Below the pieces are notes generated by a model. That model did no database searches, was not told the origin of the DNA, and was given only the letters and a program-made list of their open reading frames with translations. Position numbers and translations under genes: made by a program. From positions 196,567 through 260,566 of the forward strand of contig AWSN01000001.1 of NCBI GenBank assembly GCA_000505065.1: a stretch of DNA of 64,000 nucleotides. Direction: 5' to 3'. This document shows, piece by piece, positions 1 through 53,864 of the stretch (positions within the stretch are counted from its first letter, which is position 1; each line of letters opens with the position of its first letter). The stretch is from Parcubacteria bacterium RAAC4_OD1_1 (GTDB taxonomy: Bacteria > Patescibacteriota > Minisyncoccia > Phycocordibacterales > UBA9973).

Positions 1-1120
1 TCCATGTAGATGGAATAAATTGAGAAGGACCCATAGCTCCACCCCAGCCTGGTACACCCTCTATAGGGCAAGATACTCTTGTATTGTATGGATCAATTCC
101 TAATTTTTTAGTAATAGTTAAAAATGGGGGAACATCTCTTGTTGGGCTCATACCATTTTTAAATATTTTACCAGTATTCATTCCTCTACTTTCTCCGGTT
201 TGTGAATCATTTAGATAGCAAAGTCCAACATTTTTTCCAATTCCTGTTTCTTGTTTAAGTATTCCAAGAATAAAAGCAGTTCGGACTCCAGTTTTTGAAG
301 ATGCATATTCTGCATATTTAACAGCATCACCAAAAGGTATTCCTCCACCAGAAACTCCCCCAGCAAGCTCAAAAAGTCTCGCTCTTATTTTTGTGGCTTC
401 GGCTTGTCTTTCTGCTATAACCTTAGAATATTCTACTTCTTTGTTTTTGCTAATAGAAAGAAGTTTTTGTTTTTCAGCTTCGCTTAATTCAACTTTTTTC
501 TTTGCATTTTCTAATTCAACCTTTGTATCTGTTTCTTTATTTTTCTTTTCTTCTAAACTTTTTCTTTCTTCTTCAGTAAGAGTTTTGACACCCCTTATTT
601 CATCCATAGAATTTTGTATTCCTTCTTTAATAGATGAAAAAGTAGCAAGATCACTATAAGCTTCTGATACGGACTCTTGAGAAAGCATAATAGAAAAAAT
701 TGATTTATTATCAAGCAATCTTTCTTTTCTTATAAGTTGAGCCAAAGATTCTTTTTCTTTTTCTATTTTTGAATTTAGAGATTGAATTTGTTTACTTTTT
801 TCTGTTATTTCACCTCCTAGTTTTTTTATTGTTAGATTTTTTGCTTGTATATCTAGTTTTGCTTTGTTTATTTGAGTGGTAAGAATTGAAATATCTCTTG
901 ATAAAGACGCTGATTGTCCTTTTTGTCCAGCAAGCTCTTTTTCTTTTTGAACTATTTCTTTTTCAAGTTGAATAAGCTCTTTTTCAAGTTTGGCTTTATC
1001 TATCTCTGCTGTTTCCAGAGCTTGATTAGCAGCTTCAGTTTTTATGTTTAAAAACACAAAACCACTTAAAAAAACTATAAACAAAATAAAAAATAAATAT
1101 AATTTAAATTTATACTGCAT
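1..1120 (-). CDS. Partial CDS (C-terminus beyond window start): N-terminal TM + long coiled-coil + lytic murein transglycosylase (MltB-like) domain
   Basis: Minus-strand ATG at 1120..1118 with open frame to position 1. Translation MQYKFKLYLFFILFIVFLSGF... then coiled-coil. Near window start it reads ...IEGVPGWGGAMGPSQFIPSTW, matching the MltB-family motif (GAMG..QF.PSTW). Not in the ORF track because there is no in-window stop. Confidence 0.6.
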   Translation of the reverse strand, partial: MQYKFKLYLFFILFIVFLSGFVFLNIKTEAANQALETAEIDKAKLEKELIQLEKEIVQKEKELAGQKGQSASLSRDISILTTQINKAKLDIQAKNLTIKKLGGEITEKSKQIQSLNSKIEKEKESLAQLIRKERLLDNKSIFSIMLSQESVSEAYSDLATFSSIKEGIQNSMDEIRGVKTLTEEERKSLEEKKNKETDTKVELENAKKKVELSEAEKQKLLSISKNKEVEYSKVIAERQAEATKIRARLFELAGGVSGGGIPFGDAVKYAEYASSKTGVRTAFILGILKQETGIGKNVGLCYLNDSQTGESRGMNTGKIFKNGMSPTRDVPPFLTITKKLGIDPYNTRVSCPIEGVPGWGGAMGPSQFIPSTW

Positions 1121-1178
1121 TTTGATATTATAGCATATTGAAACCCCATTTGGTATAAATGGGGTTTCAATTGGTATT

Positions 1179-1829
1179 TTATTCTTCTTTTGTTTCTCCT
1201 CCTTCTTCTTCTTTTTTACCTTTCTTTTCTACTTCAATAGAAGATAAGTCAACTGCTACCTCTTCTTCTTTTTCTTCTTTGATTGTAGTAACGAGAGCTA
1301 CAACTTCATCTTCGTTTGTTATAAGTTTAACTCCAATTGGAAGTTTAATATCTTTTGCGTGTATTTGATCTTCGAGTGTTTCTAGTTTGGTCAAATCTAC
1401 TTCTAGGTTGTGAGGTATATCTTTTGGAAGAGCTTCAATTTCTAATTCGTGGAGAACTTTAGTAAGTACACCCAAACCATTTTTCTCTGCTCCTGCTATA
1501 CCGATAAATTCAAGTGGAACTGTGACTTCTATAGATTTGTTCATATCGATTGCTAAGAAGTCTATATGTATAGGAAAGTCTTTTATTGGATCTTTTTGAA
1601 TTTCGTGTATAAGTACATCTACTTTTATAGGTTTGTCTCCTTTTATTTCTAATACTATTGCACTAGTTTCCCCTGCTACCTTTAATAATTTTGAAAATTC
1701 GATGCTCGGTACGGAAATCAGGGTGTTTTCCACGCGAGCGCCATAGACAACAGCTGGAACCATACCGTTATTTCGTATAGCATCTAGCTTATTTGCCTTA
1801 CTTCGCTTTGTTGCGGTTAATATATTCAT
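1179..1829 (-). CDS. rplY: 50S ribosomal protein L25 / general stress protein Ctc
   Basis: MNILTATKRSKANKLDAIRNNGMVPAVVYG... is a typical L25 N-terminus with an acidic C-terminal tail. ATG at 1829; the ORF-track start at 1865 is a TTG further upstream. Confidence 0.85.
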   Translation of the reverse strand: MNILTATKRSKANKLDAIRNNGMVPAVVYGARVENTLISVPSIEFSKLLKVAGETSAIVLEIKGDKPIKVDVLIHEIQKDPIKDFPIHIDFLAIDMNKSIEVTVPLEFIGIAGAEKNGLGVLTKVLHELEIEALPKDIPHNLEVDLTKLETLEDQIHAKDIKLPIGVKLITNEDEVVALVTTIKEEKEEEVAVDLSSIEVEKKGKKEEEGGETKEE

Positions 1830-2299
1830 AGGACAAATATTAACACTAAAATCAAATATTTGCAATAGATAATAAAAGGTGGTAAGGTTTGTGTAAAATA
1901 ACTTAAAATCAAAAAATATGAATACACTTGAAAACTTGTCATTTTCGGAGTTGCTTGATCTTTTAATAGATGAAGAAACTACAGATATTGAAAAATAGAG
2001 AGTTAAGAAGTTTCTTCTTAATAATTTTTGTGAAAATCCAAGTTATGCCTATAATCAGGCGATGGAAAATTTAAAAAACATTTCCGATGACAATCTTGTT
2101 ATTGCAAATTCCAGGCTTTGTGCCCGGGATATTGAAGAATCTTTGTTGGAAAATATGGAAACAATGTCTTTTGATGCAATTGAAAATATTGTTGAAGAAA
2201 AAATTGTAATCGGGAAAAAACATTGTATAAGGTTTTAAAAAATGGGTTAAAACCCATTTTTTTATTTTGATGTAGCAAGAACCATTCTTGCTAGTCACT

Positions 2300-2327
2300 G
2301 CTCCCCACTTGGGACGAAGTGGGAACC
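2300..2327 (+). repeat. Hairpin repeat R1 (GCTCCCCACTTGGGACGAAGTGGGAACC)
   Basis: Stem CCCACTT/AAGTGGG with loop GGGACG. First of six same-orientation copies in 2300..6660. Confidence 0.8.
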
Positions 2328-2363
2328 TTTTTGAGTAATAAAGAAAATATTGAATCCCGCATA

Positions 2364-2391
2364 TTGACAAATTCTATAAATATTATAGAAT
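2364..2391 (+). promoter_or_regulatory. Sigma70-like promoter for the 2472 gene
   Basis: TTGACA-N16-TAGAAT, followed by the ACTATACTCCTT motif shared with the other island promoters. Confidence 0.5.
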
Positions 2392-2471
2392 GATGAAAAA
2401 TATAAATCAGGGACTATACTCCTTGTTTTACATCAGCTTAAAATTTCTTTCACATTTAAAAAAAATAAAAT

Positions 2472-3197
2472 ATGACAACATTTGATTTTAACGACAATCA
2501 ACCTGAGTTTAGAGCTCGAGTTTTTGATGGAGACAAAAGTGTAAAAACAGAAAGACCCTATGAAATTTTTGGTAAAACAAAAAAATCAAAAGGAACAACT
2601 TTTTTGGATATGGAATGTGCCTGCGGTGCAACTGATTGCGTAAGTAGGATAAGCTTTTACTATAGTGGATTAAATCACTATTGCAACTCAAGAAATCTTG
2701 GCAGTGATACACAGATTAATATTAATCCTTCTCATAAAGAAGAAAATGGTAGGGCAAATAATGTAATGTGGGATCCGACTGATGAAAATGTTTCTGAATT
2801 TATTAATTTTTCAGAAACTGTACGAGAAGCAATTGCTTTCAAACAAAAGTTACTAAATGGTCTTTACGCAGAGTTACAGGTAAGAATTAAGGGAATTGAT
2901 TATTATGGTGAAGTACAACTGATTGTTCGTAAGGATGAAACAGATATGCTTTTTTATCTTTTTGAGATTCCTAATGTTTTTCCAAAAGTTCCATTGCTTA
3001 ACGAGGCGAAAACTTATCTTGAATGTTTAGGATTGGTTGCTACGTTACCAGCTGAAATAGATACCAGTAAAATAAAAAATGATTACGCTGATATGGCAAA
3101 TCCTTTTTTTAAACCTATCATTGAATGGGTTAAGTTGCTTGGAGAAGAAAATCAGATGGAACTTCAGATCAAAAACATTTGGGTAATACCTGAATAG
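2472..3197 (+). CDS. Hypothetical protein (241 aa)
   Basis: Full ORF in a hairpin-repeat-flanked cassette. No recognisable motif. Confidence 0.5.
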   Translation: MTTFDFNDNQPEFRARVFDGDKSVKTERPYEIFGKTKKSKGTTFLDMECACGATDCVSRISFYYSGLNHYCNSRNLGSDTQININPSHKEENGRANNVMWDPTDENVSEFINFSETVREAIAFKQKLLNGLYAELQVRIKGIDYYGEVQLIVRKDETDMLFYLFEIPNVFPKVPLLNEAKTYLECLGLVATLPAEIDTSKIKNDYADMANPFFKPIIEWVKLLGEENQMELQIKNIWVIPE

Positions 3198-3300
3198 TTT
3201 AGCAAATACCTCCCTATCATTTTTTGATAAGGGGGTATTTTTGAAAATTAAAAATATTATTTTAATACAAAAATCCTTTTTTTAAAAGGAGAATTTATTT

Positions 3301-3328
3301 GCTCCGAACTTGGGACGATGTTGGAACC
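3301..3328 (+). repeat. Hairpin repeat R2 (degenerate copy)
   Basis: GCTCCGAACTTGGGACGATGTTGGAACC matches the R-family consensus with 5 mismatches that disrupt the stem. Confidence 0.6.
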
Positions 3329-3485
3329 AGAATAGGACAAATAGAAAACCGCTAGTGATAGAGGTTTTCTATGCAGCTAGCGGCTGATTTACCGTTTTTA
3401 ATTGTTGAATACTTGCTCCAAGGGTAAAAGACTTTTAATGGCTTTGATTTTCTCTTGCCACTTTAAATTAAATCATTTTTTTAAA

Positions 3486-3749
3486 TTATCTTCTTTCAAG
3501 GTTTTTTTTGAAAGACTCAGCAAGAGAAGGTTTTTCTTCTCCGTTTTCACTTAAACACCAAACAAATTCTACTTCTGAACTTCTTTTTAGCGAAATTTCA
3601 GAAATAAGTTTTGCTCTGGTTTGTTCGTTATCGGGACCATAGATCTTGTATACATTCCTGTTTTTGACAGGATAAGTATCATCATCTATTCCTTCACCAC
3701 CAACAAAACCAATTTTAAAGATTGAAACAATCCACCAATAATTTTTCAT
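3486..3749 (-). CDS. Hypothetical small protein (87 aa)
   Basis: ORF preceded on the minus strand by TTGACA-N17-TAATGT (3788..3816). Confidence 0.4.
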   Translation of the reverse strand: MKNYWWIVSIFKIGFVGGEGIDDDTYPVKNRNVYKIYGPDNEQTRAKLISEISLKRSSEVEFVWCLSENGEEKPSLAESFKKNLERR

Positions 3750-47062: not shown

Positions 47063-47752
47063 TTATCTCACTTCTAAAAAAATTTTAGGGTGATTATCAA
47101 GTATATTTGTTTTTATTTCAGGAAAAATTTCTCCTTTTTGTAATAGTCCAACAAATTCTGTTATCCTGGTTTTATAAGGGTAAACATATGCTTCAAATAA
47201 AACTCCACGGGCTTTAACTTGTACCATTAATTCTGGTAGTTCTTCTAAAATATATCTTCCAAATTTATTTATCTCATTATTATTAAATGTCCTTTTTTCT
47301 TTTGAAACCCATTCTTTTACAAAATTTTCTATATAATTTTTAAAATTAATATTTTTATCATATAAATTATATAAATATTTAACTTTCTCTTTATATTTAG
47401 AATCTGCAATATCTGACCATGTAGCATATATTATTTTTGCTTGTTCATCTTGACTAAAAGACAAACTAACCCTTTCTTTTATTTTAATAAAAAGATTCCT
47501 TCCGTACCTTATTGCAACCTCTTCTGCGTGACTATCAGACAATTTATTACGAACAGATAAATTAATCCCATGTATTGAGTCAGCAATATAAATTATTACA
47601 TACTCTTTAGTGTGCAATAATGACCATTTAACTAATTTTTCTATATTATCTATACTAAACCATTTATTACCCAAACTAATAGCTACCCCAATATTATATT
47701 TTTTGAGTTCTATATCATTTTTATGGCAACCTCTTATTTGATGTAATTCCAT
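47063..47752 (-). CDS. Cyclodipeptide synthase (CDPS) family protein
   Basis: Catalytic-Ser motif GVAISLGNKWFS (AlbC GISAGNSYFS, YvmC GISPFNSRFS). YILEELPEL (AlbC YVLAELPLF, catalytic Y/E). AYVYP..TRITEFVGLL (AlbC CYHIDTPITAFL). 229 aa. Confidence 0.6.
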   Translation of the reverse strand: MELHQIRGCHKNDIELKKYNIGVAISLGNKWFSIDNIEKLVKWSLLHTKEYVIIYIADSIHGINLSVRNKLSDSHAEEVAIRYGRNLFIKIKERVSLSFSQDEQAKIIYATWSDIADSKYKEKVKYLYNLYDKNINFKNYIENFVKEWVSKEKRTFNNNEINKFGRYILEELPELMVQVKARGVLFEAYVYPYKTRITEFVGLLQKGEIFPEIKTNILDNHPKIFLEVR

Positions 47753-47780: not shown

Positions 47781-49157
47781 CTACCAACCAAATTCTTTAC
47801 CTACGTCTTCAGGAGATTCTCGTTTTCGTGCTACAACTATATGTCCATTTTCAGCAATTAATTTTAATGGAGAAGAAAGCATGCAATGATGTGATGCTAA
47901 AGCATCTTGATAAGCTCCCGTATCAAAAAATGCGACATAAAGAGTATCGTTGGGATCATAATTATAATCTGGTAAGACAACTGTATCATTAACTCCTGTG
48001 TAAATATCATCTGAATCACACGAAGAACCTGATATCCAAATATCATTTAATTTATTGTCAAATTTATTATTAACAGGAGCAACAAACCATTTTTGATTTA
48101 TACCCCAAACATCAGGTAAATCATTCATCAAGCTTCCATCTATTACATACCATTTTTTTGCTCCAACTTTTTTATTATTTATTATCTTAGTATCAATAAC
48201 TTTAAAAATTGTTATTTGAGCAGGAGCTACCATATACTTTCCCCATTCACAAATAAGATTTGGATGAGAAATTCCCCTCTTTTCTGATTCTTTTTTAAGA
48301 AGTTCAAAAAGTTTTTCTAATATTTTTTCAACAGAATATTTTTTATTTCTTTCAAAAGGAATAGGCATACCACCTCCAATATCTAAAGTATCTAGTGATG
48401 GATTTGTTTCTTTTAATTTAAAATATACATTGAGAGCATATTTGGTGGTTTCAACAAGATCAGATAATTTTTCAATTTTTCCAATTCTATAATGTAAAAC
48501 TTTTAAATTTCTAAAAGATGACATTTTAAGAAGTTCATTTCTGGAAAAACCAAATCTATCTATTTGTTTATTCCAATTTATTTTTGATTTTACTGGTATA
48601 TCAAGTCTAATTCCAACATCGTATTTGGAATTCTGAAAAGTTTTAAGCTCACTAGGACCCTCTATAATAGGTACAACTTTAAGTCCTCTGTGTTGAAGTT
48701 CATCAATAAGATTTATATATCTATCTGTCTTAGGTCCATTACATAAAATACGCATCTTTTCGTTAAAAGATTGCTGTTCTAGCATTTTTTTAACAATATA
48801 AAGTTCATTATAGGATGAAGTTTCAATATTTGCTCCTTCTCCCACCATAGCAAGTACTACTTCTTTTGTTTGACTTGCTTTCATGGGGTAGTGATAAAAA
48901 AACTTCCCCTGATATTTTAATTTTTTAATTAATGAATCAGATAAATCAAGTAGATCTTCAACTCTTTCCTCGATAATATAAGGAAAAAGAATTTCAAGTG
49001 ATGTCCCGAATTTTTCTGCTAGATATTTTATATTATAAACATTATTACCTTCCTTTGCGATAAGATCCCCATCTTTATTGTAATCGAAATATTGTGTATT
49101 AAAATCCTTTATACCAAGCTTCCAAAGTTTCTTAGAAGCAATTGAGCGTTTGGTCAT
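47781..49157 (-). CDS. Fold-III PLP-dependent decarboxylase, biosynthetic arginine decarboxylase (SpeA)-like
   Basis: YHYPMKASQTKEVVLAMVGEGANIETSSYNEL resembles SpeA YPIKVNQHRRVIESL..GLEAGSKAEL. LEILFPYIIEERV resembles LLIRFPQILQHRL. Would supply agmatine to aguA. A DAP-decarboxylase (lysA) role is not excluded. Confidence 0.65.
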   Translation of the reverse strand: MTKRSIASKKLWKLGIKDFNTQYFDYNKDGDLIAKEGNNVYNIKYLAEKFGTSLEILFPYIIEERVEDLLDLSDSLIKKLKYQGKFFYHYPMKASQTKEVVLAMVGEGANIETSSYNELYIVKKMLEQQSFNEKMRILCNGPKTDRYINLIDELQHRGLKVVPIIEGPSELKTFQNSKYDVGIRLDIPVKSKINWNKQIDRFGFSRNELLKMSSFRNLKVLHYRIGKIEKLSDLVETTKYALNVYFKLKETNPSLDTLDIGGGMPIPFERNKKYSVEKILEKLFELLKKESEKRGISHPNLICEWGKYMVAPAQITIFKVIDTKIINNKKVGAKKWYVIDGSLMNDLPDVWGINQKWFVAPVNNKFDNKLNDIWISGSSCDSDDIYTGVNDTVVLPDYNYDPNDTLYVAFFDTGAYQDALASHHCMLSSPLKLIAENGHIVVARKRESPEDVGKEFGW

Positions 49158-49246: not shown

Positions 49247-50332
49247 CTATAAACCTTCTTCTTTTAATTTTTCTATTAATTCTTTATTCTTTTTTGAAAG
49301 TTTAGGCATAGTAATATTTACTTTTACTATAATATCTCCTCTTCCATAATTATTTGGAACACCCTTACCTCGTACTCTTAATAATTCTCCATTATTTATT
49401 CCTTCTGGAATTTTTATTTCCAAATTTCCACCATCTAAAAGTTTAAGCTTATAAGTAGAACCTAAAAGTGCATCAGTAAGCTTGATTTTTATTTCTGTAA
49501 TTAGATTATCTCCATCTCTTTTATATATATCATTTGATTTTACTTTCAATCTAATAAATAAATCTCCAAATCTTCCACCTTGCACTCCATCTCCCTCTCC
49601 ATTCAATTTTAATCTTTGCCCATCTTCGACTCCACTAGGAATATTTATAGATATAACATCATCACTTTTGTTAATTCCTATTCCTTTACAATTAGAACAT
49701 TTTTCTTCAGGGATTTTTCCAGATCCGCTACATTCTCCACAAGCAGATACAGATTCAAAATTTCCAAGTATTGTTCTTTTAACTTCTCTTATTTTTCCAG
49801 CACCACCACATTTTTTACAATTATTTAATTTAGTACCCTTTTTTGCTCCAGTACCCTCACAAACTTTACAAGTTGAATTTCTATTAATGCGAATATCTTT
49901 TGAAACTCCAAAAATAGATTCCTCAAATGTTAAATCAAGAAGAACTTCTAGATCTCGCCCTTTTTTCTGGCCTCCTCTAGAACGACCACCCATTCCACCT
50001 CCAAAGAAGTCACCAAAAATATCTCCTAAATCTCCCATGTCAAATTCTACTCCACCATTCGCATTTCTGAAATCAAAACCACCAAAACCTCCAAACCCAG
50101 ACGTTCCAGGATTAAACCCACCCATATCTGCACTACCAAATTGATCATAGTTTGATCTTTTCTTATCATCAGAAAGGATCTGGTAAGCTTCATTTACTTC
50201 CTTGAACTTTGTATCATCACCCTTGTTTTTATCAGGATGGTAAGTGTGTGCAAGCTTATGAAAAGCTTTTTTAATTTCATCTTTTGATGCACCTTTATTT
50301 ACTCCCAAAATTTTATAATAGTCTTTGGACAT
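49247..50332 (-). CDS. dnaJ: Chaperone DnaJ
   Basis: J-domain with HPD, G/F-rich region, four CxxCxGxG repeats. Confidence 0.9.
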   Translation of the reverse strand: MSKDYYKILGVNKGASKDEIKKAFHKLAHTYHPDKNKGDDTKFKEVNEAYQILSDDKKRSNYDQFGSADMGGFNPGTSGFGGFGGFDFRNANGGVEFDMGDLGDIFGDFFGGGMGGRSRGGQKKGRDLEVLLDLTFEESIFGVSKDIRINRNSTCKVCEGTGAKKGTKLNNCKKCGGAGKIREVKRTILGNFESVSACGECSGSGKIPEEKCSNCKGIGINKSDDVISINIPSGVEDGQRLKLNGEGDGVQGGRFGDLFIRLKVKSNDIYKRDGDNLITEIKIKLTDALLGSTYKLKLLDGGNLEIKIPEGINNGELLRVRGKGVPNNYGRGDIIVKVNITMPKLSKKNKELIEKLKEEGL

Positions 50333-50496: not shown

Positions 50497-52386
50497 TTAT
50501 TTACCCTCTTCTTTTACTTCTGCATCTTTTATTTCTGGTTCTTGTTCCTCTGGTGTAGGATTATTTCCTTCGGGTTGTGCGTTTCCTGCTTTACTCATAG
50601 CTTCACCTATTTTAGAAATTTCAGACGAAAGTTCTTCTGTAGATTTCTTAATAGCTTCGATATCATTTCCTTCTTTTACAGTTTTAAGAGAAGTTATCTT
50701 ACCTTCTACTTCTGTTTTTAAAGAAGAATCTATTTTATCTCCATAATCTTTCAAGGATTTTTCTGCAGTAAAGATCATCATATCGGCAGTATTTTTAATA
50801 TCTGCAATTTCTTTTTTCTTTGCATCTTCTTCAGCATGAGCTTCTGCATCTTCTTTCATTTTCTTTATATCTTGATCTGTAAGACCAGAGGAAGCTTCAA
50901 TACGAATAGATTGAACTTTTCCTGAAGCTTTATCCATAGCTTTAACATTAAGTATTCCATTTGCATCAACATCAAAAGAAACTTCAACTTGTGGTATACC
51001 ACGTGGAGCAGGAGGAATACCGTCTAAAATAAACCTTCCGAGAGATTTATTGTCTGTTGCCATTGGGCGCTCACCTTGAACAATATGAATTTCTACACTT
51101 GTTTGATTGTCAGCAGCAGTTGAAAAAACTTGTGATTTAGAAGTAGGAATTGTAGTATTTCTCTCTACAAGCTTTGTAGCAACACCTCCTAAAGTTTCAA
51201 TACCCAAAGATAATGGAATAACATCAAGAAGTAAAACATCACGGACATCCCCTTGAAGAACTCCCCCTTGTACAGCAGCACCAAGCGCTACAACTTCGTC
51301 TGGATTGATTGAACGATTTGGCTCTTTACCAAAAAGTTTTTTCACTTCTTCTACTATTTTTGGCATTCTTGTTTGACCTCCAACCATTATTATTTCATTA
51401 ATATCATCCATTTTAAAAGGACTTGCTTCCATTGCACGCTTTGTAATTTCTATTGAACGATTTATATATTCTTCAGCTAATGACTCTAGGGTTGCACGGG
51501 ACATCTTTATAAGTAAATGCTGAGGACCTTCTGCACCAGATGTTATAAATGGAATATTTACTTCTGTTTCCATTGTAGTTGAAAGTTCAATTTTTGCTTT
51601 TTCAGCTGCTTCATCAAGTCTTTGAAGGGCAAGAGGATCTTTGGTGACATCTATTCCTGATTGTTTCTTAAATTCATCTGCTAACCAATGAATTATTTTT
51701 TGATCAATATCACGACCCCCCATATGAGAATCTCCATCTGTTGACTTCACTTCAATGACATCATCTGAAACTTCAAGAACAGAAACATCAAATGTTCCAC
51801 CTCCAAAATCAAAAACTACAATCTTTTCATTTTTCTTATTATTAAACCCATAAGCAAGAGCAGCGGCGGTTGGTTCGTTTATAATTCTTTTAACATCAAG
51901 CCCAGCGATCATTCCTGCATCTTTTGTAGCTTTTCTTTGTGCATCATTAAAATAAGCAGGAACAGTAATTATCGCTTCTGTTATTTTTTCTCCAAGTTTT
52001 GCTTCGACATCGGCTTTAATTTTAGAAAGTATCATTGCAGAAATTTCTTCTGGACGAAACCATTTTTCACCAATATTTACTTCTGCCCCAGAATCTTTAC
52101 CTTTTTGAATTTTAAATGGGGCAGTCTTTGAAGTTTTCTGTATTTCAGGATCTTCAAACATATGACCCATAAATCTTTTAATACCATAAATTGTATTTTG
52201 TGGATTTGTCACAGACTGACGCTTTGCAAGAAGACCCACTAACCTATCACCATTTTTAGAAATAGCGACAATAGATGGAGTAGTTCTTCCACCTTCTATG
52301 TTCTCTATAATCTTTGGTTGACCACCTTCAATGATAGCAACCGCACTGTTTGTTGTACCCAAATCTATACCTATTATTTTTGACAT
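50497..52386 (-). CDS. dnaK: Chaperone DnaK (Hsp70)
   Basis: [18 protein letters not shown], and full Hsp70 architecture. 629 aa. Confidence 0.95.
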
Positions 52387-52400
52387 ATATTTTGTAGCAA

Positions 52401-52483
52401 AACAAATTATTTTATGAAAAAATGTCTGGCACTGGCTCCCGTCCCCTATAGCCCCTAGACTTTTTTCAGAATATAATTTGTGA
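52401..52483 (-). repeat. MITE-like TIR element, copy D (in the dnaK 5' UTR)
   Basis: Same element. Lies between the dnaK promoter (52533..52561) and the start codon, ending ~15 nt before the ATG. Confidence 0.7.
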
Positions 52484-52532
52484 AGCTAATTATTAAATTA
52501 ATAATGTTTTTATAATAAAATTATACAAACTA

Positions 52533-52561
52533 ATTATATACTAACGAAGTTATTTTGACAA
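52533..52561 (-). promoter_or_regulatory. Sigma70-like promoter for dnaK
   Basis: Minus strand reads TTGTCA-N17-TATAAT. The -35 overlaps the left arm of the palindromic operator. Confidence 0.55.
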
Positions 52562-52586
52562 GTATTTAGTGGTCACTAAATACTTG
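52559..52586. promoter_or_regulatory. Perfect palindromic operator (13 bp + GT + 13 bp) between divergent dnaK and regulator promoters
   Basis: CAAGTATTTAGTG-GT-CACTAAATACTTG. Overlaps the dnaK -35 and abuts the regulator -35. Confidence 0.6.
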
Positions 52587-52615
52587 TTGAATATTATATT
52601 TATATATGATATACT
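52587..52615 (+). promoter_or_regulatory. Sigma70-like promoter for the PaaX-like regulator gene
   Basis: TTGAAT-N17-TATACT, 9 nt before the ATG at 52625. Confidence 0.5.
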
Positions 52616-52624
52616 GTCAATAGT

Positions 52625-53155
52625 ATGAAAAAACGTGATTTTTCAAGGAAAATTATAAAAATGCTTTCTGAGAAGCCAGCTATTTCTCTATCTGAAATAG
52701 AAGAAAAGATACTAAATGATAAGTCTACAAAATATGCTTTAAATCGCTCTATAAAGGGTCTAAAAGACTCAGGGCTGATCGAAAACATAGATTCTGGTCA
52801 AAGTAAGTATGCAAAGCTTACAAAGGAAGGTAAGAAAAAGGCCCATAGTATTAAGCTTGAATGTGAGAATGCTGTAATAAGTAATACTTGGGATGGATTT
52901 TGGAGAATTATAATTTTAGATGTAGAAGAAGACAGAAAAAGTGAAAGAGAAGCAATTAGGTATCTACTTAAAAAAGCAGGATTTGTATCTGTAAAAAATT
53001 CTGTTTGGATTTCTATGTATCCTTTCGAATACCTGTTTACAAATATAAAAAATGATTTAGATCTTACAACAGAACTTATGATAATAGTCACAGATAAGAT
53101 CGACAAAAAAACAGAAAAAGAATTTTTATCTCTCTGTTTAACTAAAACAGAGTGA
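52625..53155 (+). CDS. PaaX-like winged-HTH transcriptional regulator (candidate dnaK-operon repressor)
   Basis: N-terminal wHTH. C-terminal WDGFWRIIILDVEEDRKSEREAIRYLLKKAGFVSVKNSVWISMYP matches the PaaX_C pattern WDG.W..v..D.pE..R..R..LR..L...GF..L.NSVWiSP. 176 aa. Confidence 0.6.
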   Translation: MKKRDFSRKIIKMLSEKPAISLSEIEEKILNDKSTKYALNRSIKGLKDSGLIENIDSGQSKYAKLTKEGKKKAHSIKLECENAVISNTWDGFWRIIILDVEEDRKSEREAIRYLLKKAGFVSVKNSVWISMYPFEYLFTNIKNDLDLTTELMIIVTDKIDKKTEKEFLSLCLTKTE

Positions 53156-53770: not shown

Positions 53771-53864
53771 AATATTCTTATAATAATAAAAATTCCAGAC
53801 TTTTTCAAGTCTAGAATTTTTAATTTTAACGTTTAGACCTAAACACTCCATGTCGGTCGACGCT

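Follow-up and report, generated by a model that had tools for sequence, protein, structure and literature searches.

Which protein, acting at which DNA site, controls the dnaK chaperone genes of Parcubacteria bacterium RAAC4_OD1_1? The question is raised by a 64 kb stretch of AT-rich DNA from this organism (contig AWSN01000001.1; hereafter, the window), whose nearest relatives are metagenome-assembled Paceibacteria/Nomurabacteria genomes (Parcubacteria, Candidate Phyla Radiation (CPR)). In bacteria, hrcA is usually located upstream of grpE–dnaK. At roughly that position, the window carries a gene (52625–53155, plus strand) encoding a protein of 176 amino acids, here called the regulator. Its open reading frame (ORF) sits between grpE (53165 to ~53770, minus strand; Pfam GrpE, E-value 1.2e-34), with which it is convergent, and dnaK (50497–52386, minus strand), the predicted regulated gene, and it lies on the strand opposite to both. 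An earlier, sequence-only reading of this locus had described this oppositely oriented ORF, and we find it as described. The dnaK–regulator intergenic region, 238 bp long, contains a perfect palindrome at 52558–52587 that we predict to be an operator. Judged from sequence comparison, the protein and the palindrome very probably constitute a conserved regulator–operator pair dedicated to the dnaK operon, one that was previously undescribed.

The palindrome has the form ACAAGTATTTAGTG-GT-CACTAAATACTTGT, that is, two arms of 14 nucleotides around a center of two (14-2-14). The sequence-only reading had reported a perfect 13-2-13 palindrome, CAAGTATTTAGTG-GT-CACTAAATACTTG. That element is present with 0 mismatches at 52559–52586, is not reproduced by any shuffle of the window, and extends to the 14-2-14 form. 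The latter is the longest perfect short-loop inverted repeat of the 64 kb, and it occurs once in the window.

Throughout a class-level clade, the palindrome, the regulator gene, and dnaK are conserved together, one to one. Specifically, a scan of one genome per GTDB species showed that at least 462 genomes encode a relative of the regulator, and the best 80 loci were analyzed. The dnaK gene (73–87% identical) is divergent from and upstream of the regulator in 78 of these 80 loci; the other 2 have no upstream sequence. One palindrome each is present in all 72 of the intergenic regions that could be delimited (72/72), and also in 8 loci with intervening genes. The operator consensus is aCAAGTATTTCGyG-ry-CrCGAAATACTTGT, in which C2/G29, T9/A22, G12/C19, and G14/C17 are invariant or nearly so; the centers of its inner TTTCGYG blocks lie 9 bp from each other. 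A position weight matrix derived from the operators scores the true sites at 27–48 bits, and it finds no further match of ≥12 bits in 760 kb of GTDB loci. In metagenome contigs, a strict exact-pattern scan with a 20-mer yielded 120 loci, 47 of which encode the regulator. Wherever both the regulator and dnaK are present in these loci, the site lies between the divergent genes (38/38). The remaining 73 loci are unrelated: their median GC content is 0.53, they mostly have GATC/GGCC centers, and they fall within genes or in gene-poor DNA.

The position of the site is likewise conserved. The distance from the palindrome to the regulator ATG is 32–39 nt in most loci, most commonly 34. Extra minus-strand ORFs often lie between the site and dnaK (L002, L003, L017, L022, L036, L064, and L065), so that dnaK is the last gene of an operon headed by the site. 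When insertions part the site from the regulator, the site usually stays before the dnaK operon (L079, in which the regulator is 3.7 kb away; L072; and L025); the insertion in L062 is a transposase-like ORF in front of the regulator. We note, regarding the intervening genes, that a small ORF of ~87–100 amino acids with weak similarity to DUF3467 lies between the operator/promoter region and dnaK in L002, L003, L036, and L065. Different small minus-strand ORFs occupy this position in other loci, so the operator-controlled operon is not uniform in content.

What kind of protein is encoded beside the site? It is a truncated PaaX-family transcription factor, consisting of a winged helix and a Cas2-like dimerization domain and lacking the effector-binding C-terminal domain. 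Specifically, residues 87–166 match PaaX_M (PF20803, “PaaX central Cas2-like domain”; Pfam E-value 2.9e-18, 66.2 bits, cutoff 24), and the ferredoxin-fold domain to which they belong extends over residues ~87–173. The N-terminal part obtains weak helix-turn-helix (HTH) matches only from Pfam; a winged-helix DNA-binding domain, as is characteristic of the PaaX family, occupies residues ~6–79. When an AlphaFold2 model of the regulator (predicted local distance difference test score, 77.5) was compared with known structures using Foldseek, the best match was E. coli W PaaX (8a39; 174 columns, E-value 1.9e-5), and the fold likeness spans both domains. A profile search against PDB sequences returned nothing significant and did not reach PaaX at E<1; PaaX is therefore reached by fold comparison only. 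The domain and fold matches bear out the proposal of the sequence-only reading that the protein is a PaaX-related winged-HTH regulator. The C-terminal PaaX_C pattern named in the same reading belongs instead to PaaX_M: PaaX_C (PF08223) has no match in the regulator at E≤10, and the protein ends ~10 residues past PaaX_M. On the TIGR02277 PaaX_trns_reg equivalog model, the regulator scores 35 bits versus a cutoff of 264.55. By domain content, the regulator is a member of the PaaX superfamily, but it departs from PaaX proper in every defining feature: it has no C-terminal domain, an equivalog score below the cutoff, a different operator, and no link to paa genes. Its neighbors are dnaK, dnaJ, grpE, and, beyond grpE, ribosomal protein genes; no paa catabolic genes are nearby. 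An identity as a CRISPR Cas2 protein was considered and rejected, given that the flanking genes are dnaK and grpE and the Cas2 similarity is weak (TIGR01573 E-value 0.074).

The regulator has more than 1000 homologs at E≤1e-3, and among the 120 matches listed, which are 55–100% identical, all carry PF20803. Residues 5–12 are conserved across orthologs, which supports the start codon at 52625. Across 18 orthologs (60–78% identity), 39 columns are invariant in residues 89–160 versus 15 in residues 1–80, making the Cas2-like domain the best-conserved part of the protein. In the recognition helix, Y37, R41, S42, and K44 are invariant across the orthologous group. That group is tight: counted as clusters at 50% identity, it comprises 21 representatives at E<1e-30. 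The wider family of ~175–200-residue proteins with a winged HTH and PaaX_M (mini-PaaX proteins) comprises 1027 representatives at E<1e-10 and 3489 at E<1e-3. Paralogous mini-PaaX proteins are encoded on Berkelbacteria-like contigs (L157 55–617; L201; and L202), with a PaaX_M E-value of 1.1e-23; the L157 paralog also matches PF09827 at 1.1e-4. One of the Berkelbacteria relatives adjoins Memo/AMMECR1/radical-SAM (AmmeMemoRadiSam) genes and another adjoins unrelated genes, and neither has the palindrome. The idea that mini-PaaX paralogs generally reside beside chaperones was rejected, as the Berkelbacteria paralogs are not next to dnaK. Because these paralogs have neither dnaK as a neighbor nor the palindrome, the dnaK role is a property of the orthologous group and not of the whole family. 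Separately, we observe a similar palindrome, AACACTATTTAGCGGTCGCTAAATAGTGTT, directly 3' of the stop codon of one Berkelbacteria-like paralog.

How is the site placed with respect to the promoters? Both of the promoters named by the sequence-only reading are present. P1, on the dnaK strand (52533–52561, minus), reads TTGTCA-N17-TATAAT, matches the consensus at 11/12 positions, overlaps the left palindrome end with its -35 hexamer, and has a predicted start near 52526. Preg, the candidate promoter of the regulator (52587–52615, plus), reads TTGAAT-N17-TGnTATACT, and so carries a TG extension; its predicted start is near 52622. If Preg is used, the regulator mRNA would be effectively leaderless, because that start lies 3 nt before the ATG. 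A third element, P2, which the earlier reading missed, lies on the dnaK strand at 52593–52620 (minus). P2 reads TTGACA-N16-TATAAT, a 12/12 match, and its predicted start near 52586 coincides with the right palindrome edge.

Of the three, P2 is the best-conserved promoter-like element across the 72 loci. It scores ≥10/12 in 82% of these loci versus 1.4% of shuffles, and its predicted start falls between -2 and +3 nt relative to the palindrome edge. P1 scores ≥10/12 at the same position in 53% of loci. Preg is the weakest (mean 8.9/12; ≥10/12 in 25% of loci), with its predicted start at +31 to +35 in 68/72 loci. One clade, in which only 31–60 nt separate dnaK from the palindrome, lacks P1, leaving P2 as the sole good dnaK-strand candidate. 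P2 and Preg are mirror-symmetric on the same ~34 bp, with the -35 hexamer of each at the predicted start of the other, an arrangement that is conserved across loci. Because they occupy the same DNA on opposite strands, P2 and Preg must compete for polymerase. The palindrome lies at ~+1 to +30 relative to P2, while its center is at ~-47 relative to P1 and ~-50 relative to Preg, and it extends 1–6 bp into the -35 hexamers of those two promoters. Thus, the palindrome overlaps both the regulator's own and the target promoters and is co-conserved with the regulator, as in autoregulated divergent pairs.

We consider it highly likely that the protein binds the palindrome and controls dnaK and/or its own gene. 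The full explanation, in which the protein is an autoregulated, dnaK-operon-specific repressor of truncated PaaX lineage, is likely as well, with somewhat less assurance. According to this proposal, a dimer of the 176-residue protein would bind the 30-bp palindrome at 52558–52587; the bound site would cover ~+1 to +30 of P2 and overlap the -35 hexamers of P1 and Preg; and occupancy would silence dnaK–dnaJ as well as the regulator gene. Both would be derepressed when proteotoxic or heat stress releases the protein. Repression of dnaK combined with autorepression is the most economical reading because the site covers +1 to +30 of a consensus promoter as well as parts of two -35 boxes. In addition, P1 and P2 are near consensus, and promoters of this kind typically need a repressor rather than an activator. 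The chances are about even that heat or unfolded protein is what the system senses. Two models would be in keeping with known chaperone regulators. Dimerization or DNA binding could be heat-labile, as in RheA, CtsR, and Phr. Alternatively, DnaK may act on or titrate the regulator, in which case the amount of free DnaK would determine how strongly the operon is repressed, as in HspR or sigma-32. A conserved protein–protein contact would be compatible with the unusually strong conservation seen in the Cas2-like domain. Three elements of the proposal are inferred: this protein as the binder of the site, repression as its effect, and heat or unfolded protein as the signal.

Several points weigh against this proposal. 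The placement of the palindrome at P1 and Preg would also suit an activator, and the case for repression stems from P2, which puts the site at +1 to +30, and not from P1 or Preg. The sequence-only reading had suggested an autoregulated dnaK–dnaJ repressor from the geometry of P1 and Preg: the comparative data support a conserved regulator–operator pair dedicated to the dnaK operon, while the geometry of the promoters then named does not by itself indicate repression. Moreover, the transcription starts are predictions from hexamer matches, which are common in an AT-rich genome (17 found versus 8.7 expected in a local scan). The P2 -35 hexamer (TTGACA) is, in most loci, the reverse complement of the regulator start region ATGTCAA, and part of the P2 conservation could therefore be coding constraint; countering this point, GTCAA is kept without a preceding ATG in the window, L007, L008, and L066. 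Finally, no recognizable sensor or ligand domain is seen in the protein. We also entertain a bolder extension, which we regard as speculative: the orthologous group could be the principal regulator of proteostasis in Paceibacteria and represent an independently evolved form of chaperone-operon control, built on a PaaX scaffold devoid of a ligand domain, in which the Cas2-fold domain would be the sensor (thermolabile or a DnaK client) and occupancy would flip polymerase between P2 and Preg.

Could the protein bind the palindrome to a different end? It could be an activator that recruits polymerase upstream of the -35 hexamers of P1 and Preg, or a directional switch that blocks P2 and redirects polymerase to Preg. 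The site is indeed upstream of, and slightly within, those -35 hexamers, Preg as the weakest element could gain from activation, and P2 and Preg must compete for polymerase on their shared DNA. However, P1 and P2 should need no activator, and the clade that lacks P1 has the site at the start point of P2, a repressing position. Furthermore, the characterized relatives, i.e., PaaX proteins, are repressors (PMC9493321), as are most known transcription factors of bacterial chaperone operons. We judge activation or switching to be unlikely. Less likely still is that another factor binds the palindrome while the mini-PaaX protein does an unrelated job, be it at other genes, as a nuclease, or as part of a toxin–antitoxin pair, with adjacency to dnaK reflecting conserved gene order. 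This idea draws on the large size of the mini-PaaX family at E<1e-10, on the Berkelbacteria paralogs in unrelated neighborhoods, and on the concentration of invariant columns in the Cas2-like domain and not in the DNA-binding part. Yet the site is locked at its distance from the regulator ATG and overlaps a predicted -35 hexamer, the usual signature of autoregulation; neither cas genes nor a toxin partner flank the gene; and the invariant residues of the recognition helix are matched by invariant operator positions.

The least probable alternative, to which we assign very little weight, is that the palindrome functions as nucleic-acid structure. It could be a cruciform, a terminator acting in both directions, or a hairpin at the 5' end of the P2 transcript that affects stability or senses temperature. 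A consensus scan does mark the palindrome as terminator-like on the plus strand, and if P2 is real, the palindrome constitutes the first 30 nt of its RNA. Between divergent genes, however, a terminator has nothing to terminate, and the arms do not behave as paired RNA. Many loci have several mismatched arm pairs, and symmetric positions vary independently, without covariation. Specifically, among 75 sites, Watson–Crick pairs at the variable symmetric positions are as frequent as by chance (33 versus 31.6 expected at positions 11/20; 48 versus 37.4 expected at positions 13/18), whereas at the central GT/AC step and at the invariant G/C positions, it is the sequence that is conserved rather than the pairing. 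The lack of covariation argues for two protein half-sites read by a dimer and not for a selected hairpin. We rejected the RNA or terminator interpretation of the palindrome on this ground; Rfam returned noise only. Repression by the dimeric regulator remains our preferred explanation.

How far would this repressor reach? The sequence-only reading had raised the prospect of copies of the palindrome at further chaperone promoters; the palindrome is present in none of the 56 grpE and 30 dnaJ upstream regions checked. Because the palindrome is nowhere else in the DNA examined, in which the Paceibacteria sequences include no groESL, clpB, rpoH, or similar genes, the protein would seem to act locally, on the dnaK operon, rather than as a regulator of the general heat-shock response. 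The predicted regulon consists of the dnaK(–dnaJ) operon and the regulator itself. The dnaJ gene (49247–50332, minus strand) is downstream of dnaK and is probably cotranscribed with it, as the 164-nt gap that separates them in the window holds neither a terminator-like nor a strong promoter-like site. We note one locus with a different arrangement, L124, the sole chaperone-linked locus among the 73 metagenome loci without the regulator. This CPR contig has the gene order grpE–dnaK–dnaJ, its dnaK is 71% identical, and no regulator gene was found within 9.6 kb. Between its dnaK and dnaJ, 3' of a dnaK terminator, is a perfect palindrome of 30 bp (L124 6406–6425) that shares the core and reads CAACTTATTTCGCG-GT-CGCGAAATAAGTTG on the strand of these two genes.

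Known heat-shock operators do not occupy these promoters. The sequence-only reading had noted the absence of CIRCE (controlling inverted repeat of chaperone expression; TTAGCACTC-N9-GAGTGCTAA), and, in agreement, there are 0 matches with ≤3 mismatches anywhere in the window. Extending the search to ≤4 mismatches in 129 related loci (1.08 Mb) revealed none before dnaK, grpE, or dnaJ; the sole CIRCE-like match, with 4 mismatches, is in L052, far from these genes. In the same 1.08 Mb, HAIR (HspR-associated inverted repeat; CTTGAGT-N7-ACTCAAG) appears as scattered chance strings with 2 mismatches, none conserved at the dnaK or regulator promoters, and no CtsR box was found. A crude one-motif check, for the HrcA-like N-terminal motif QPVGS[RK], gave no match in six-frame translations of the window and 200 loci.

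How does the proposed system compare with characterized ones? PaaX, the phenylacetyl-CoA-responsive repressor of paa genes (E. coli W, 8A39; Jannaschia, 3L09), has, like the regulator, a winged helix followed by a Cas2-like dimerization domain. PaaX is autoregulated and represses divergent promoters through steric hindrance of RNA polymerase, and its C-terminal domain binds phenylacetyl-CoA (PMC9493321). The PaaX box is TGATTC-N27-GAATCA (PMC9493321), which led us to discard a suspected PaaX-box resemblance. PaaX differs in its length (~305–316 versus 176 amino acids), in its C-terminal effector domain, which is missing here, in its widely spaced operator versus the compact 14-2-14 site, and in its targets, as here the target is dnaK and there are no paa genes.

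Among chaperone regulators, the system would work like HrcA/CIRCE or HspR/HAIR, yet it belongs to neither family. HrcA likewise represses the dnaK (and groESL) operon via a conserved inverted repeat near the promoter, but it is a member of another protein family, and grpE here is outside the reach of the new operator. In systems studied, HrcA activity depends on GroEL. HspR of Streptomyces, Helicobacter, and Mycobacterium resembles the proposed regulator in being a dedicated regulator encoded at the dnaK operon; it is autoregulated, and its operator, an inverted repeat, lies at the dnaK promoter. In contrast, HspR belongs to the MerR family, its gene is part of the dnaK operon, and its fold and operator are unrelated to those here. 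HspR nonetheless provides a plausible model for feedback through DnaK. Phr from Pyrococcus, CtsR, and RheA are, like the regulator, small dimeric HTH proteins without a small-molecule ligand domain; their targets are chaperone genes, which they repress, and heat causes them to release DNA. Beyond the winged helix, they have no sequence or domain kinship with the regulator.

CPR/Patescibacteria represent a large share of bacterial diversity and, to our knowledge, almost nothing is known of their gene regulation. Within the library searched, we found no paper linking a PaaX-like protein to dnaK and none describing heat-shock regulation in Parcubacteria. The locus supplies a transcription factor, a probable 30-bp operator, and a target operon, conserved in >100 species-level genomes of uncultivated Paceibacteria. 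A single purified 20-kDa protein and a single oligonucleotide would suffice for in vitro tests of this triad, and the organisms need not be cultured. If the proposal is correct, a new protein family joins the chaperone-operon regulators HrcA, HspR, CtsR, RheA, and sigma-32, and the large family of small proteins with a winged HTH and a Cas2-like domain (~1000–3500 clusters at 50% identity) obtains its first function.

The dnaK mRNA may, in addition, be subject to a second, RNA-level control. In the window, the 5' leader of dnaK contains a long, GC-rich hairpin (52402–52481, minus strand) that ends ~19 nt before the AUG and has a minimum free energy of -30.9 kcal/mol (z = -3.8 versus shuffles). 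Leaders related to this GC-tipped hairpin exist in L002 and L020. Ten other dnaK leaders (L016, L027, L041, L042, L053, L055, L058, L066, L069, and L076) contain a common multi-stem motif, ctgctcgg.ccgtcg.cctg.gcaaggc, with compensatory changes at 13 of its 18 predicted pairs. No Rfam match was found for the dnaK leader RNA.

Other repeats were encountered in these loci. A hairpin family resembling miniature inverted-repeat transposable elements, with ends (C/T)CCCGT(T)AGA...TCTAACGGG(G/A) and 4–5 bp duplications (TCAA, ATGAA), is repeatedly inserted at start codons. Copies lie just 3' of the regulator ATGTCAA in L020, L023, L027, L034, L040, L041, L047, L053, L055, L068, and L069, and one is at the dnaJ start in L124 (6130–6250); there are other copies in L026 and L124 and none in the window. 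Contigs of ~55% GC from unrelated organisms (L085–L087, L090, L100, L104, L114, L120, L126, L153, L181, L184, and L200) contain another recurrent palindrome, TTATTTAGYGATCRCTAAATAA, whose CA..TG flanks are conserved; this palindrome is probably the operator of some other regulator. At a contig end, L192 (4–160) carries a tandem array of four TTTTATTTCGCGACCGCGAAATAAAATC copies with a 43-bp period.

Finally, we note features of the genes surrounding the pair. A promoter-like element for grpE at 53808–53780 (10/12) has a predicted start ~3 nt 5' of the ATG and overlaps a terminator-like hairpin 3' of rpsI (53822–53787). Both the regulator and grpE appear leaderless, and no Shine–Dalgarno sequence is visible 5' of dnaK either. 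Directly downstream of dnaJ, a gene for a decarboxylase-like protein (47781–49157, minus strand; pyridoxal phosphate-dependent, of the ornithine/arginine/diaminopimelate type) adjoins a CDPS-like gene (47063–47752, minus strand; Pfam CDPS, E-value 1.2e-7), and a CDPS seems unexpected in so small a genome.

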